A stretch of DNA of 63,771 bases, filler included, from Gemmatimonadota bacterium (GTDB taxonomy: Bacteria > 4572-55 > J002), in NCBI GenBank assembly GCA_003697105.1. It is 6 parts of 6 records of this genome, joined end to end, with 100 filler letters (N's around TTAATTAATTAA, not from the genome) between each part and the next. Parts side by side here need not be neighbours in the genome. Positions count along the whole stretch, not along the records: positions 10,402 to 26,078 come from RFFQ01000133.1; 5 more parts are not named here. One strand, given 5' to 3'. Positions 10,302-59,680 of this stretch are shown in pieces. The position numbers and the translations under genes are program-made. The notes beneath the pieces are model-generated. The model was not told the origin of the DNA, did not search any database, and was given only the letters and a program-made list of their open reading frames with translations. The first letter of the stretch is position 1. Each line of letters starts with the position of its first letter.

Positions 10302-10401
10302 NNNNNNNNNNNNNNNNNNNNNNNNNNNNNNNNNNNNNNNNNNNNTTAATTAATTAANNNNNNNNNNNNNNNNNNNNNNNNNNNNNNNNNNNNNNNNNNN
10401 N
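10302..10401. other. Artificial contig linker
   Basis: N run with central TTAATTAATTAA (stops in all six frames). Confidence 0.99.
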
Positions 10402-11595: not shown

Positions 11596-13005
11596 TTATC
11601 TAACCGCACCGGTTGGTGCGTGTGAAGTGTCTAATGTATCAAATTTCAATCGTTCTGGCAACCGTTCTCTTTGGTCAATATCGTTCAAATCTTCTTTTTC
11701 CCGAATCACATCCACCTGACCGGCATCCCCAATCAAGACCACATTGGGGCGATATTCAATAAATTGCATCCACTGGGTCACATTGTATGCTCCCACCGGT
11801 GAGAAGATCAAGCGGGTTCCCCGGTCCAAGGGGGGCAAAAGTGAGCCTTCATCGATAATGTCAATATTCATACACAGGGGACCATAAATGACGGCGGGTT
11901 CATTAACCCCTTGTATTTCGCGATCCAGTTCAATCGTATATTTATACCAGTAGGAGGTGTACAGCAAGTTCACGCCGGCATCCGCTACATAGGAACGGCG
12001 CCCATCTGGCAGGCGTTTTGTCGCAACAACAGAGGTGATTAGATACCCCGCCTCATCGATAAGCCACCGGCCCGACTCTAAAAAGAGGCGTGGAAAATCA
12101 CCCGGTCGCAAATGGCGATAGAGGGCATCGGTGATCCGCTCGGCATAGTCATCAATTGGCGAAATCGCTACCTCCGGCGGTAGATACATCCCTTTGAGGC
12201 GGCTCTTGGAGGGGAAACCACCGCCAATATCCAGATATTCGATCTTAAAACCAAATTGGTCTTCCAGTTCGTAAGCAAAGCACACCATTTTTTCCACTTC
12301 TCGCGCATACGCCGAGGGGTCTAAAATGTACGTCCCAATGTGGCAATGCAACCCGTTGATCGCTATTTTGCCGCCGCTGGCAATCCGTTTGACGGCATCC
12401 ATTGCTTGCCCAGAATCCAGATTTAGCCCAAAACGTGACCACTGGGGATGGATGCCGGTATCCATGTTCAACCGGATGCCGATTTTCACGGGTTTACCCC
12501 AAGCATCTGCTACCCGCTCTATATCATAAATTTCATCAAAATGATCCAGGTTCACCATTGCCCCTTCACTTAACGCTTTTTGGAGAGCAAATGGTGACTT
12601 AAACGGGCCATTAAAAATAATGTCCTTCCCTTCGACTCCCAGCCGGCGCGCTTTGTCGTACTCCATTTCGGAGACCACTTCAGCAATGGAGCCTTCTTGG
12701 TGCATAATGGCACAAATTGCCTGCAAATAGTTGGTTTTGTACGACCAGCCAAAGGTAACATGGGGATAACGCGTGTTGAACGCCGTGAACATCTCCCGGT
12801 AGCGGCGGCGAAGTGTTGCCTCTGAATAGACAAACAACGGCGAACCAAATTGTGAAACCAACTGGTCAATACTGACTCCGTCAATGTCCTTCCGAATCTT
12901 CCGGGCATAATACGGACTGCTACCAAATTTGTTCATAAAACCGCTTTCCAACTTGATAAACACCGGTTTTTCATAGATTTTTTTCATGCCCATATCCTTT
13001 TCCAT
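11596..13005 (-). CDS. Fold-type III PLP-dependent decarboxylase (LysA/Orn-DAP-Arg family) with N-terminal extension
   Basis: SYKTN (PLP Lys), HCHIGT, DIGGGF, ESGR, GPLCMNID, GAY motifs; alternative start at 12987 (MKKIYEKP). Confidence 0.88.
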   Translation of the reverse strand: MEKDMGMKKIYEKPVFIKLESGFMNKFGSSPYYARKIRKDIDGVSIDQLVSQFGSPLFVYSEATLRRRYREMFTAFNTRYPHVTFGWSYKTNYLQAICAIMHQEGSIAEVVSEMEYDKARRLGVEGKDIIFNGPFKSPFALQKALSEGAMVNLDHFDEIYDIERVADAWGKPVKIGIRLNMDTGIHPQWSRFGLNLDSGQAMDAVKRIASGGKIAINGLHCHIGTYILDPSAYAREVEKMVCFAYELEDQFGFKIEYLDIGGGFPSKSRLKGMYLPPEVAISPIDDYAERITDALYRHLRPGDFPRLFLESGRWLIDEAGYLITSVVATKRLPDGRRSYVADAGVNLLYTSYWYKYTIELDREIQGVNEPAVIYGPLCMNIDIIDEGSLLPPLDRGTRLIFSPVGAYNVTQWMQFIEYRPNVVLIGDAGQVDVIREKEDLNDIDQRERLPERLKFDTLDTSHAPTGAVR

Positions 13006-14043
13006 CTAGTTTTCACCCTGAGTCGTTATTTTCTGGAACATCTGCATATCCGTAACCAGCTCATCGGTGTAACGGATATACAGTTTGCCGGGGTCATAAT
13101 CGAAGGTGGCCGGTAAAGGCAACTGGTAAATCTTACGGATGATATTCGCCGGAAGGTTGACTCCGACCCCAGTCGCAAAATATGACCATGCGGGAAAACG
13201 CGGATTGATTTCAATCAGATAAACCGTATCGCCATCGACCATACATTCCATTTCCAGTGGTCCCTTCCAACGATACCGCCGGATAAAGTTGGCTGTGACG
13301 TCTCGCATTCGCTCATTTTTGATGGTCACGCCCGTCCATATTTTACCCAGTGAGGTAATCCACATTTTTTTGATACCCACCTGCCCGAGCAACTCACCCT
13401 GCCCATCACCGACCGCCACAACGTTCATCTCTTCGCCAAAGACCATCCCTTGGACGATAACCGGGTAGCCCCATTCGGCAACCAACTTGTGATAATGCGC
13501 CACCGCTTCCTGATAGGTATAGGCTTTGTACGCCTTATAGAAAGCACCTTTAACCATCACCGGCAAACCGATCCGCTCTACGGCACGGTGCAGTTCTGCC
13601 AGCGAGGTTACCACCTTTGTGGGGGGAATACTCACCTGAATGGCCTCTGCAATATCAGCCAACCGGTCTTTGCCACGCAAGTTAAATTGATCCAAGGTTG
13701 GCAGGAACGTACGAATGCCCAGCGCTGCTATTTCGTGCTGGTATTTGGTAAAAAAGGGCAATTCTGCATCTAAACACGGCAAAACCACATCCAGCCCATA
13801 ACTGTGTTTGATGTAGTGCAACCGTTGCAAATATGCCTCCGCATCCGCGGAGGGATAGGGCATAATGAATGCCTTATTGATAACCCAATCCATGTAGATG
13901 CCCGGCTCCTGAGTGTCGTATGCCAAACCCACAACATGGACCTTGAGATCGGGGTCTTCGTGCAAACTGCGGGCAACGCCTACCCCCGGACCCGGATTAT
14001 CCACCGCATTAATCCCAGAAATACCCACATAGATTTCTGCCAT
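13006..14043 (-). CDS. ATP-grasp ligase (carboxylate-amine ligase-like)
   Basis: PVMVKG, PVIVQ, LIEINPRFPAW ATP-grasp motifs; abuts the decarboxylase with no gap. Confidence 0.88.
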   Translation of the reverse strand: MAEIYVGISGINAVDNPGPGVGVARSLHEDPDLKVHVVGLAYDTQEPGIYMDWVINKAFIMPYPSADAEAYLQRLHYIKHSYGLDVVLPCLDAELPFFTKYQHEIAALGIRTFLPTLDQFNLRGKDRLADIAEAIQVSIPPTKVVTSLAELHRAVERIGLPVMVKGAFYKAYKAYTYQEAVAHYHKLVAEWGYPVIVQGMVFGEEMNVVAVGDGQGELLGQVGIKKMWITSLGKIWTGVTIKNERMRDVTANFIRRYRWKGPLEMECMVDGDTVYLIEINPRFPAWSYFATGVGVNLPANIIRKIYQLPLPATFDYDPGKLYIRYTDELVTDMQMFQKITTQGEN

Positions 14044-14069: not shown

Positions 14070-14306
14070 CTAGATCAACTTGTGGGTCCGTAAAACATCT
14101 ATAAAATCATTGATGTCCCGTTCCGCGTCTTCGGGTTGGACTTCAAAATCTGCACAGAGGTCTTCGACAATTTGCGATGGTGATTTTTGGGCGCGCAAGC
14201 CTTGCAGGATAGTCAAGCCGGTGGGGTTGGTCGTGAAGCTTTCACCTGTCGTTGGATCAAACACAAAACCTTCATCATTTATTGCCAATTGGTGCAGCCG
14301 GTTCAT
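14070..14306 (-). CDS. PqqD-family / RiPP recognition element (RRE) protein
   Basis: 78 aa; GFVFDPTTGESFTTNPTGLTILQGL...IVEDLCADFEVQPEDAERDINDFIDVL pattern of three strands plus three helices typical of PqqD; AAAGGAG RBS. Confidence 0.88.
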   Translation of the reverse strand: MNRLHQLAINDEGFVFDPTTGESFTTNPTGLTILQGLRAQKSPSQIVEDLCADFEVQPEDAERDINDFIDVLRTHKLI

Positions 14307-14358: not shown

Positions 14359-14913
14359 CTAATCAAGTTCGTTATGGTGCTTCTCATGTTCGTCGGGGTC
14401 TTCCTTGGAGTCTTCTTGTTGAAGAGTGACCGTTAGCGAACCGGTCTGTTTGACCCCGGTATTCGCCGGAGGTTTAATCCCCGCTTCGTGTAGCCTCATC
14501 GACCATGTTTTAATGGTCTCTTTTTGGGAGTCATTTAACTTTGCGTCTGGATGTAGGGGCAGATAGATTGCTAGGGGCATTTTGCCTTCTGCGACTTCTT
14601 CCCAAATTTCCTCCGCCAAATCGATCTGTTCTTCTGCATCCATTAGACCCCATTCCGAAAAATTGAGATATTCCCTGCCGTGATTGACATCCCGCGCTAC
14701 CAACCACGAGACCGGAGCAATTTTACTGTACCAGGGCCACACCGTTTCATGGGAATGGCAATCATAACAAGATGTTTTAAAGATCGATTTGACACCGGGG
14801 GGAGCCTCTAAATCCGCCCGAACAACCGGATTTGTGCGCTCCACCGGCACAAATTGAATCCCGATAAACCCAAGCCCCAAAAGGACAACCATAATGCGTA
14901 ATAGTGCTTTCAT
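14359..14913 (-). CDS. Haem-binding domain protein (single CxxCH c-type cytochrome)
   Basis: Signal/TM then IQFVP, SCYDCHS, WPWYS..APVSW, LNFSEW, MPL..Y..LHP. Confidence 0.85.
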   Translation of the reverse strand: MKALLRIMVVLLGLGFIGIQFVPVERTNPVVRADLEAPPGVKSIFKTSCYDCHSHETVWPWYSKIAPVSWLVARDVNHGREYLNFSEWGLMDAEEQIDLAEEIWEEVAEGKMPLAIYLPLHPDAKLNDSQKETIKTWSMRLHEAGIKPPANTGVKQTGSLTVTLQQEDSKEDPDEHEKHHNELD

Positions 14914-16247
14914 ACCCTCTCCTCCACTGAGCCCTCGATATGGGTAATAACAAAAAGGGTAAAATCCCCGCTTTTTCCTTTAATTTGAATGTTTTCCAAG
15001 GTTTCTGTTTGTACCGGCAGGGTTAATCGATTTCGGACAGCTTGACTTACAATAACTTGACCGGGTTTGGCAATGGATTCCAGACGAGAGGCAAAATTGA
15101 CCGTATCTCCAATGACGGTGTAATTCATGCGGTCTGGGGAGCCGATATTACCCACAATCGCCTCACCGCAATGGATGCCAATCCCTAGGGAAATGGGAAG
15201 GTCAACATCTTGTTGTTTTGCCTCCCGCAAGTATGCCGCAAAGATTTTCTGCATTTTCAAGGCGGCACGGACTGCGCGTTCCGTATCATCCGGTTTGCGG
15301 ATCAGGGCACCGAAAACCACCATCACACTGTCTCCAATAAATTTATCAATCGTTCCGCCAAATTCGTGAATGACACCGGTCATTTTTGAGAAAATCTGGT
15401 TCAGAATACGCACCACGTGTTCCGGTGAGGTTTGTTCTGAGAATGCCGTAAACCCCCGAATATCCGCAAAAAGCACGGTTACATCCTGCTTAATACCACC
15501 TAATTGGATCTGACCCGGTTGTTTGAGGATCGTCTGCGCCACTTCCGGCGAGACGTAGTTCCCGAAGATCGTCTTCAGTTGATCCTGTTCAGCTTGTTGG
15601 GTTTCAATCCGTTTACCTGCCTGATTGACGATGACACCCAGCAAGAGAAACAACATCCCCGAGCCTAGGGTCAGCACCACACTGACCCGCCAGACGACAG
15701 CCCCGATTTCCCGGTCCATCCCTTCTAACGATTGGTCTAGCACCAGAACGTAGCGCACGGTATCGTCAATGGCAATCGGCTGCCCGGTACAGATCACATG
15801 ATGCCCGTACTCCTTTTGGGTGCGCTCCTCGACAAACAACGTGCCGGCTAACGGAATTGTCGCTTCTTCATCTGTTTCGGTTTGCCCCAGTTCATCTGTT
15901 TCCAAACTGGCGATGATCTCCTGTGCCGCATTGACAACCAGCGCTTCGGTTATCTCTTTGTCTTCCGCAATATCTTCCAAATAATCCTGCACCTTAGCCA
16001 AAAAAGCATCTTCCGTTAAATGTCTTTGATGATATTGGAGTGCCGCTTCTCGGACCAAATCACCGATAAATTCAGATAGATATAACGCATTTTCCTGTGT
16101 GCGAGCGGTGATCTGCTGAATTTGAATGCGCGTAATCACGACCACCGTGATCGCAATAATCAGCAAGGAGACCAACGCTCCTCGCAGAAAAAATTGTGTT
16201 AATAACTGCCGGCGATATGAATATACCATGAACTTTTGCATCTCCAT
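14910..16247 (-). CDS. Membrane-anchored class III adenylate/guanylate cyclase
   Basis: Two TMs flanking a periplasmic domain; LFADIRGFT, DKFIGDSVM, YTVIGDTVNFASRLE, IKGK. Confidence 0.92.
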   Translation of the reverse strand: MEMQKFMVYSYRRQLLTQFFLRGALVSLLIIAITVVVITRIQIQQITARTQENALYLSEFIGDLVREAALQYHQRHLTEDAFLAKVQDYLEDIAEDKEITEALVVNAAQEIIASLETDELGQTETDEEATIPLAGTLFVEERTQKEYGHHVICTGQPIAIDDTVRYVLVLDQSLEGMDREIGAVVWRVSVVLTLGSGMLFLLLGVIVNQAGKRIETQQAEQDQLKTIFGNYVSPEVAQTILKQPGQIQLGGIKQDVTVLFADIRGFTAFSEQTSPEHVVRILNQIFSKMTGVIHEFGGTIDKFIGDSVMVVFGALIRKPDDTERAVRAALKMQKIFAAYLREAKQQDVDLPISLGIGIHCGEAIVGNIGSPDRMNYTVIGDTVNFASRLESIAKPGQVIVSQAVRNRLTLPVQTETLENIQIKGKSGDFTLFVITHIEGSVEERV

Positions 16248-26078: not shown

Positions 26079-26178
26079 NNNNNNNNNNNNNNNNNNNNNN
26101 NNNNNNNNNNNNNNNNNNNNNNTTAATTAATTAANNNNNNNNNNNNNNNNNNNNNNNNNNNNNNNNNNNNNNNNNNNN
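26079..26178. other. Artificial contig linker
   Basis: N run with TTAATTAATTAA. Confidence 0.99.
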
Positions 26179-39950: not shown

Positions 39951-40050
39951 NNNNNNNNNNNNNNNNNNNNNNNNNNNNNNNNNNNNNNNNNNNNTTAATT
40001 AATTAANNNNNNNNNNNNNNNNNNNNNNNNNNNNNNNNNNNNNNNNNNNN
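39951..40050. other. Artificial contig linker
   Basis: N run with TTAATTAATTAA. Confidence 0.99.
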
Positions 40051-52775: not shown

Positions 52776-52875
52776 NNNNNNNNNNNNNNNNNNNNNNNNN
52801 NNNNNNNNNNNNNNNNNNNTTAATTAATTAANNNNNNNNNNNNNNNNNNNNNNNNNNNNNNNNNNNNNNNNNNNN
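52776..52875. other. Artificial contig linker
   Basis: N run with TTAATTAATTAA. Confidence 0.99.
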
Positions 52876-59580: not shown

Positions 59581-59680
59581 NNNNNNNNNNNNNNNNNNNN
59601 NNNNNNNNNNNNNNNNNNNNNNNNTTAATTAATTAANNNNNNNNNNNNNNNNNNNNNNNNNNNNNNNNNNNNNNNNNNNN
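59581..59680. other. Artificial contig linker
   Basis: N run with TTAATTAATTAA. Confidence 0.99.

Follow-up and report, generated by a model that had tools for sequence, protein, structure and literature searches.

RiPP recognition elements (RREs; RiPP, a peptide made on the ribosome and modified after translation) are regarded as a hallmark of RiPP clusters, and genome-mining tools rely on them as such; discrete RREs normally hand the peptide they bind to a neighbouring enzyme. Here we analyse a locus in a 63,771-nucleotide stretch of DNA (the window) from the Gemmatimonadota bacterium assembly GCA_003697105.1, in which a PqqD-family protein, an ATP-grasp enzyme and a decarboxylase dependent on pyridoxal 5′-phosphate (PLP) are encoded side by side. 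Judged from sequence, what the lasso-type RRE of this cassette recognises seems to be its customary motif placed on a full-length metabolic enzyme with intact catalytic residues; a module for recognising peptides has apparently been taken over to dock an entire enzyme. An earlier note on this DNA had proposed that the N terminus of the decarboxylase is itself the RRE ligand, an interpretation that the sequence comparisons reported below support. The recognition module is known; its ligand and context are new, and our literature search found no description of a PqqD/ATP-grasp/decarboxylase cassette or of an RRE that reads a full-length enzyme.

The locus compared with described systems

Discrete lasso RREs recognise the motif [Y/W]xxPx[L/V/I/F/A], according to the available text of Popov et al. 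2026 (PMC13381572). The same text describes for LppB an Asp70 that hydrogen-bonds the leader Tyr and an Asn33 that holds the kink at the leader Pro, both confirmed by mutation, and for the Trp-specific PbaB1 a Gly42 and a Gln79 at those sites. In leader numbering the YxxPxL motif occupies positions −17 to −12 (PMC10368454, available part). For the nitrile-hydratase-like leader peptides (NHLP), the available part of the source sets out a model of protein/protein engagement, in which large folded, enzyme-derived leader regions take part in RiPP recognition (PMC12455567). The RRE-Finder paper, in the part available, reports lasso-type discrete RRE matches without lasso machinery nearby, which could be uncharacterised classes.

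The window RRE is like the lasso B1 proteins (TbiB1, TfuB1/FusB1) and LppB of the linear polyphosphorylated peptides in its length of about 80 residues, its PqqD-type winged helix (template-modelling score, TM, 0.75–0.81), the same proposed ligand motif, contact Asn and Asp residues at the same spacing, and its encoding as a discrete gene adjoining the enzyme it would serve. Unlike in lasso systems, the motif here stands on the N terminus of a 450-residue PLP enzyme rather than on a precursor of 30–60 residues, the cassette has neither a core peptide nor a Thr(−2), and the enzyme paired with the RRE is a PRK12767-type ATP-grasp. Neither a B2 protease, a lasso cyclase nor a kinase was found among the conserved cassette genes examined, that is, those for the ATP-grasp, the decarboxylase, a urea-transporter-like (UT) protein with an M23 peptidase domain, a 307-residue protein and a tetratricopeptide-repeat (TPR) protein.

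The PqqD of pyrroloquinoline quinone (PQQ) synthesis, with PqqA and PqqE, is likewise a small PF05402 chaperone, which there binds a peptide and presents it to a neighbouring enzyme. Unlike it, the window protein scores 23 bits against a cut-off of 46 for TIGR03859 and has a weaker fold match to 3g2b; no radical-SAM PqqE was found among the operon genes tested, and there is no room for a PqqA. The decarboxylase shares its LysA fold with FslC (the N-citrylornithine decarboxylase of the rhizoferrin pathway; 7kh2) and with BtrK, which works with BtrJ and BtrI in butirosin synthesis (7ru7, 2j66). The BtrK case offers a further likeness, a LysA-fold decarboxylase that acts on a conjugated or tethered amino acid and works with an ATP-grasp ligase, so that ATP-dependent amide formation is paired with decarboxylation. 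A difference from both enzymes is that their alignments begin only at residues 26–35 of the window protein (BtrK starts at the fold, with query residue 35 on chain residue 3). To our knowledge, neither FslC nor BtrK has a leader-like N terminus or an RRE partner. The locus also differs from NHLP systems as the available text presents them: there an enzyme-derived domain leads a modified short core, whereas here the enzyme keeps its catalytic residues, only a short motif is present and no core is evident. Judged by its conserved genes and its tail, the cassette is not a lasso system, a PQQ pathway, a graspetide or a known defence system; it shows no visible precursor peptide and resembles a small-molecule pathway.

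The open reading frame (ORF) map of the window gives a closely spaced minus-strand trio, made up of a 78-residue PqqD-family protein, a 345-residue ATP-grasp enzyme and the decarboxylase ORF at 11596–13005, with the following features:

11596–12987, minus strand: decarboxylase, 463 residues, fold-type III PLP enzyme, FslC/LysA-like and tail-bearing (PF02784, PF00278, PDB 7kh2)
12898–12987, minus strand: whole N-terminal tail, residues 1–30 (motif, then G-x-x-N-K-F-G segment, then linker), ahead of the LysA-type fold (AlphaFold2, family and PDB alignments)
12958–12975, minus strand: codons of Y5-E-K-P-V-F10, the putative docking motif [Y/W]xxPx[I/L/M/F/V] in the tail (sequence, conservation)
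13006–14043, minus strand: ATP-grasp enzyme, 345 residues, PRK12767 ‘CPSase-like’ type, whose stop codon abuts the decarboxylase ORF (NF009405, PDB 2pn1)
14070–14306, minus strand: discrete PqqD-type RRE, 78 residues, proposed receptor of the tail (PF05402, AlphaFold2, Foldseek)

Intergenic gaps within the operon measure 18–92 nucleotides, which leaves no room for a precursor-peptide gene. The ATP-grasp protein matches the NCBIfam model NF009405 (E 1.5e-19, below the cut-off) and PDB entry 2pn1 (1.5e-09), and falls just short of the Pfam ATP-grasp cut-offs (PF02222, 25.9 versus 27; PF15632, 25.6 versus 29.1); it is likely a member of the ATP-grasp superfamily.

A leader-like tail on the decarboxylase

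The decarboxylase matches PF02784 (5.5e-34) and PF00278 (1.3e-11), both above their cut-offs. Its closest NCBIfam models are FslC (NF041039, 223.8 bits versus a cut-off of 500) and lysA (TIGR01048, 216.5 versus 297.9) and, as both scores are below the equivalog cut-offs, it is neither an FslC nor a LysA equivalog; its best solved relative is the FslC structure 7kh2 (E 4.3e-59). Across the decarboxylase alignment (A1), K84, H216, G255–257, E304, C372 and Y401 are invariant, and we take these to be the catalytic residues.

Family models and solved structures align to the protein only from about residue 32–41 of 463. In an AlphaFold2 (AF2) monomer model built from an alignment of 64 sequences (mean predicted local distance difference test score, pLDDT, 82.8), residues 1–30 have a pLDDT below 50 and no secondary structure, and the confident fold starts at about residue 31. 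Because the alignments and the confident fold both begin only after the tail, the extension that the earlier note had seen ahead of the LysA fold is real, at roughly 30 residues. Positions 12949–12987 on the minus strand encode MKKIYEKPVFIKL, and the protein begins MKKIYEKP. An AAGGA lies 9–13 nucleotides upstream of the ATG at 12987, and among 120 listed homologues 119 have Y-x-x-P at about residues 5–8, three to four residues after their own starts; the sole homologue without an early Y-x-x-P is P0082 (433 residues), which begins MNKFG. The alternative in-frame ATG at 13005, 18 nucleotides further upstream, would add MEKDMG, a segment present in no homologue. The true start lies upstream of the motif; the note had named a start downstream of it as a case against its proposal.

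To evaluate how far the motif is conserved, we searched the window and the fetched loci jointly for decarboxylase ORFs, using the family hidden Markov model (HMM) at E 1e-40 or better, which gave 260 ORFs, 229 of them non-duplicate. The motif was scored as [YWF]xxPx[LIVMFA] lying 36–52 residues ahead of the conserved G-S-P anchor of the fold. All 213 non-duplicate cassette decarboxylases whose N terminus can be read have it, with Tyr (176) or Trp (37) at position 0, Pro at +3 in every case, and Ile (155), Leu (44), Met (7), Phe (5) or Val (2) at +5. In the loci listed, 40–44 residues separate motif and anchor. As a control, only 19 of 1,595 other ORFs of at least 200 residues in the same loci (1.2%) carry [YW]xxPx[LIVMFA] within their first 25 residues; the tail motif exceeds chance. 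When the fold parts are clustered at 60% identity, the aromatic residue and the Pro remain invariant across all 27 clusters, even where the rest of the tail no longer aligns, and representatives at 30–50% identity keep the motif although their tails are beyond alignment.

Beyond the motif, the tail has a second block, G(+11)..N(+14)K(+15)F(+16)G(+17), with Lys at +15 in 191 of the 213 sequences. It is partly kept among clusters and gone in the L254, L251, L247 and L269 types, which retain motif, PqqD and ATP-grasp; across the 27 cluster representatives, +15 is K in 18, R in four, T in two, A in two and Q in one, and +14 is N in 15. At +1, homologues may have V, I, Q, S or other residues in place of Glu. 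Across the 27 clusters the tail has no invariant acidic or nucleophilic position, which sets the tail apart from a graspetide core.

Two variants of the tail were seen along the way. Among loci L191–L213, from the phylum sample around G003, many carriers have small genomes of 1.6–2.3 Mb and a common Trp-type tail, W-x-K-P-[ST]-L-T-P-H-R. P0130 (871 residues, from the representative library) is an in-frame ATP-grasp–decarboxylase fusion, which looks as if the stop codon between neighbouring genes was lost; taken at first sight as a tail-less form, it was rejected as such since its linker keeps a tail with Y-V-R-P-S-I.

The PqqD protein resembles leader-bound lasso RREs

The PqqD protein of the window scores 53.7 bits against PF05402 (cut-off 23.4, E 2.6e-14), and its best sequence matches in the PDB are TfuB1 and TbiB1. 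The AF2 model (pLDDT 93) has, by DSSP, strands at residues 14–17 and 22–25, a two-residue stretch of strand at 8–9 and helices at 28–38, 43–54 and 58–74, that is, the winged helix of the PqqD fold with a small β-sheet followed by three helices. A Foldseek search with this model returned complexes of lasso B1 proteins with leader peptides as the top six matches, at 30–33% identity (6jx3_B, TM 0.75; 5v1u_D, TM 0.81). Leader-bound RREs reach an E value of 4e-5, compared to 0.016 for 3g2b and about 0.1 for the DNA-binding domains of response regulators.

The residues that contact the leader in characterised RREs are also kept. In a profile alignment, N27 and D64 of the window protein fall on the columns of LppB Asn33 and Asp70, with an equal spacing of 37 residues, and chain 9x90_B has G and Q at these columns, matching the expectation for PbaB1. 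Both residues are 97% conserved among 175 unique cassette PqqDs and belong to the most conserved positions. D64 is replaced in four of the 29 loci with Trp-type tails but in only one of the 147 with Tyr-type tails (Fisher p 0.0027), cases that are not phylogenetically independent, the four with Trp-type tails representing perhaps two evolutionary events. The direction of this covariation agrees with the Tyr/Trp rule in the available text of Popov et al. (PMC13381572).

The window PqqD also scores 40.5 against a cut-off of 35 for TIGR04353, the PqqD chaperone of the ‘HPr-rel-A system’, a family that presumably calls for an HprK-related kinase A as neighbour; no HprK-related kinase was found among the five neighbouring proteins tested. 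In model score, fold and contact residues the window PqqD is an RRE, as the note had assumed, and more precisely it resembles the lasso B1 proteins; that it binds a ligand is a model-based prediction.

Tail motif and PqqD gene occur together

A scan with one genome per species yielded 351 relatives. Of the best 80 of these 351 loci, 72 have PqqD and 78 the ATP-grasp; the gene order is PqqD, ATP-grasp, decarboxylase throughout, and seven of the eight loci without a PqqD match end before the expected PqqD position. No conserved small ORF of at least 30 residues was found near the cassette in the 80 loci, only shadow or lineage-restricted ORFs.

Over the 229 non-duplicate decarboxylases, 176 have both the motif and PqqD (174, plus L113 and L174), none has PqqD without the motif, and 10, which fall into nine clusters at 60% identity, have neither despite at least 5.6 kb of upstream DNA. 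A further 39 have the motif with no PqqD seen, 36 of them with at most 1.4 kb of upstream DNA, and in four the N terminus is cut by the locus edge. The contig start truncates L252, whose genome has a PqqD at the edge of another contig. At the level of clusters, all 23 assessable PqqD-linked clusters have the motif, compared to nine clusters with neither. In the test that the note had proposed, YxxP enrichment in PqqD-linked over unlinked homologues, the motif is present in all 176 linked loci and absent from the 10 without PqqD within at least 5.6 kb.

L113 (4881–5010) and L174 (1400–1456) had at first been taken for PqqD without motif, a reading rejected as an artefact of ORF calling, the motif lying in frame upstream of a start other than ATG, GTG or TTG. 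Both lack these codons before the tail, which suggests non-canonical starts or local sequence errors.

Two comparators are close to the window enzyme, each at 41% identity. L250 keeps the two ATP-grasps and the UT-like gene that characterise its cluster type and has DVVKEL where its sisters have [YW]ETPEL, with a TPR gene at the expected PqqD position and no PF05402 match in its 2.9-Mb genome (G1122); L244 has no tail, and its genome (G459) has no PF05402 match either. Divergence alone fails to explain the pattern, because L269 (HMM E 7e-75) has motif, PqqD and ATP-grasp, whereas L259 (9e-76), which is equally remote, has none of them. The tail-less comparators were taken from phylum samples; when metagenomes were scanned with alignment A3, built from tail-less representatives, the best 80 matches were all cassette members that bear the tail.

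Predicted complex and proposed role

We predicted the complex of PqqD (alignment A2) with tail residues 1–40 (alignment A1), together with three controls. The interface score ipSAE (interaction prediction score from aligned errors) was 0.56, 0.56 and 0.61, the best control reaching 0.00, and the outcome is graded ‘weak support’. In the calibration this mark is reached by 58 of 80 solved complexes and by two of 110 mismatched pairs; seven of those 80 and both mismatches lie at 0.60 or under. The runs agree in at least 83% of contacts, with a partner pLDDT of at least 54.

We consider it probable, with moderate confidence, that the RRE serves as docking site for the tail and links the decarboxylase with the ATP-grasp. 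The flexible first 30 residues of the decarboxylase would act as a built-in ‘leader peptide’ through the [Y/W]xxPx[I/L] motif (YEKPVF), and the 78-residue lasso-B1-type RRE of the same operon would bind this tail, presumably as an added β-strand; going by characterised RREs, the Tyr hydroxyl would be held by Asp64 and the kink at Pro by Asn27. The RRE could in this way hold ATP-grasp and decarboxylase together in a single complex and possibly activate them, and an amide made by the ATP-grasp may pass directly to the decarboxylase without release. As analogies for the reaction, FslC decarboxylates N-acyl-diamino acids and BtrK a carrier-bound Glu; binding itself, the bridging role, the order of reactions and the product are inferences.

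Tethering is the most likely purpose because the RRE gene always abuts the ATP-grasp gene and discrete RREs normally pass their peptide to an adjacent enzyme: PqqD lies directly against the ATP-grasp gene grasp1 in each of the nine expanded clusters, with the decarboxylase 2–4.5 kb off. That motif and fold are kept 40–44 residues apart points to a defined assembly and not to a loose tether. If this is true, leader/RRE recognition is also a means of assembling enzyme complexes, which would account for a class of ‘orphan’ RREs and cautions against taking every RRE as a marker of a RiPP; a 10-residue tag with an 80-residue receptor might then be reusable for enzyme scaffolding.

Weighing the alternatives

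Several observations weigh against this account. Since the whole cassette is conserved together, co-occurrence alone cannot separate binding of the tail by the RRE from membership of a common pathway. Eight of the 10 comparators that lack motif and PqqD are remote (28–31% identity), which leaves only L244 and L250 as close controls, and the two genomes without a PF05402 match, G1122 and G459, may be incomplete. At L090 (2284–6251), neither PqqD nor ATP-grasp lies in the 4.9 kb upstream or the 1.3 kb downstream of a tail-bearing decarboxylase; this decarboxylase follows an ORF of 872 residues on an 8.1-kb contig and is the only exception to the linkage that is not accounted for. At L074, another ORF fills the 483 nucleotides upstream of the ATP-grasp, and PqqD is on another contig. 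A PqqD fused to a larger protein was not found at E 1e-8 or better, which is weak evidence. The second conserved block, G..NKFG, is not accounted for by docking, and the score of the predicted complex may reflect likeness rather than the affinity of this pair, because lasso RRE–leader complexes are in the PDB.

The tail could instead be a true RRE-guided substrate that the ATP-grasp modifies covalently, either by placing an amino acid on Lys +15 as a self-carrier, in the style of LysW/LysX or BtrI/BtrJ/BtrK, or by a cross-link of the graspetide type. That RREs usually deliver peptides to modifying enzymes, that PqqD always abuts the ATP-grasp, that 7ru7, the L-glutamyl-[BtrI] decarboxylase (E 2.6e-23), is a LysA fold acting on a carrier-tethered substrate, and that the G..NKFG block with its frequent Lys at +15 is conserved would all fit. 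With no invariant nucleophile or carboxylate in the tail, however, with R, T, A or Q in place of Lys in a third of the clusters, a variable Glu at +1 and a block that is lost in four cluster types despite motif, PqqD and ATP-grasp, we judge this unlikely, though worth keeping in view; the lack of a ligatable tail residue invariant across clusters is the reason for which we favour an adaptor over obligatory covalent modification. In a specific form of the idea, the decarboxylase would be its own carrier, the RRE positioning the tail in the ATP-grasp, which loads an amino acid (for example on Lys +15) before the tail swings to the active site. We hold this to be a rather improbable arrangement; if true, it would be a self-contained, RRE-guided ‘swinging-arm’ pathway that unites RiPP logic with carrier chemistry of the LysW/BtrI type.

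A different possibility is that the tail belongs to the decarboxylase itself, for example as an arm swapped within the dimer, a lid over the active site or an autoinhibitory segment, while PqqD serves a peptide encoded elsewhere and the motif is convergent. Fold-type III decarboxylases are obligate dimers whose N-terminal strands contribute to the C-terminal domain, and a segment that lacks order when the monomer is modelled may become ordered against the partner subunit; moreover, the small-ORF search covered linked ORFs of at least 30 residues, so that shorter or unlinked precursors would have escaped it. But motif and PqqD are gained and lost together, the motif is exactly that of this RRE subtype, the RRE retains both residues that contact it, and the close relatives L244 and L250 have lost the motif (L244 the tail as well) yet keep the fold; in addition, a search of eight tail-bearing genomes with the family profile returned a single strong match in each (E 1.7e-24 or better). 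We consider an intrinsic role doubtful on this evidence. Less likely by far is docking of the tail on the ATP-grasp, the TPR or the UT-like protein with PqqD employed otherwise, for example as a regulator. TPR proteins, typical peptide binders, occur in 56 of the 80 loci, RREs have the winged-helix fold in common with regulators, and Foldseek also lists response-regulator DNA-binding domains, with weak scores; against this, no TPR or UT gene lies near the trio in the window and in several other genomes, leader-bound RREs are the top structural matches by far (E 4e-5 versus about 0.1), and the RRE keeps the contact Asn and Asp. A likeness by chance, or a wrongly assigned start codon that puts the motif outside the real protein, could be imagined from the in-frame ATG 18 nucleotides upstream and from the ease with which six-residue motifs arise, but a motif in 213 of 213 sequences versus a 1.2% background, homologues that start three to four residues before the Tyr, and a Shine–Dalgarno sequence before the ATG at 12987 make it extremely improbable. 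Docking of the tail by the RRE thus remains the reading we prefer.

Distribution and genomic neighbourhood

Loci with the cassette come from Aquificota, Calditrichota, Ignavibacteria/Melioribacteraceae, Gemmatimonadota, Planctomycetota, several proteobacterial groups, Cyanobacteriota, Chlamydiales and others. In three phyla, relatives at E 1e-80 or better by the decarboxylase profile were found in 16, 50 and 31 of 401 sampled genomes; in the phylum around G003 the cassette is present in 50 of the 401. Most phylum-sample loci returned carry the tail and, where the upstream DNA allows, PqqD and the ATP-grasp.

Directly 3′ of the decarboxylase, 71 of the 80 loci encode a fusion of about 695 residues that joins a UT membrane domain (PF03253) to an M23 peptidase (for example, L004:7358–9445), then a 307-residue protein without a family match (47 of 80) and the TPR protein (56 of 80). 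The window has only the PqqD/ATP-grasp/decarboxylase trio, without the UT+M23, 307-residue and TPR genes. PADLOC matched no family for the three window proteins and their conserved neighbours.

Downstream of the decarboxylase, the window encodes a 385-residue protein with no family match, whose C terminus is unreadable because the 3′ end of its ORF meets the N stretch at 10302–10401. Such stretches are also found at 26079–26178, 39951–40050, 52776–52875 and 59581–59680, each made up of two runs of 44 N bases with 12 bases between them. Directly upstream of the PqqD gene on the same strand, 14359–16247 encodes a protein with a haem-binding domain (PF14376) and a membrane adenylate/guanylate cyclase, which overlap by 4 nucleotides; neither has conserved adjacency to the cassette in the other genomes examined.

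The tail-less decarboxylase at L244:7313–12489 stands beside WD40-repeat, AAA-ATPase and TIR-domain proteins, a setting that resembles a conflict or defence island. A defence system was considered and rejected: PADLOC gave no match for the L244 decarboxylase, and the UT+SIR2 protein of L254 only a weak SIR2 match (E about 1e-3). The latter protein (L254:7287–9161) comes from the L254–L258 cluster type, in the phylum sample around G002, and has its UT-like domain fused to SIR2 instead of M23. Loci of this type also place an 818-residue TPR protein and an unnamed 316-residue protein between the ATP-grasp and the decarboxylase.

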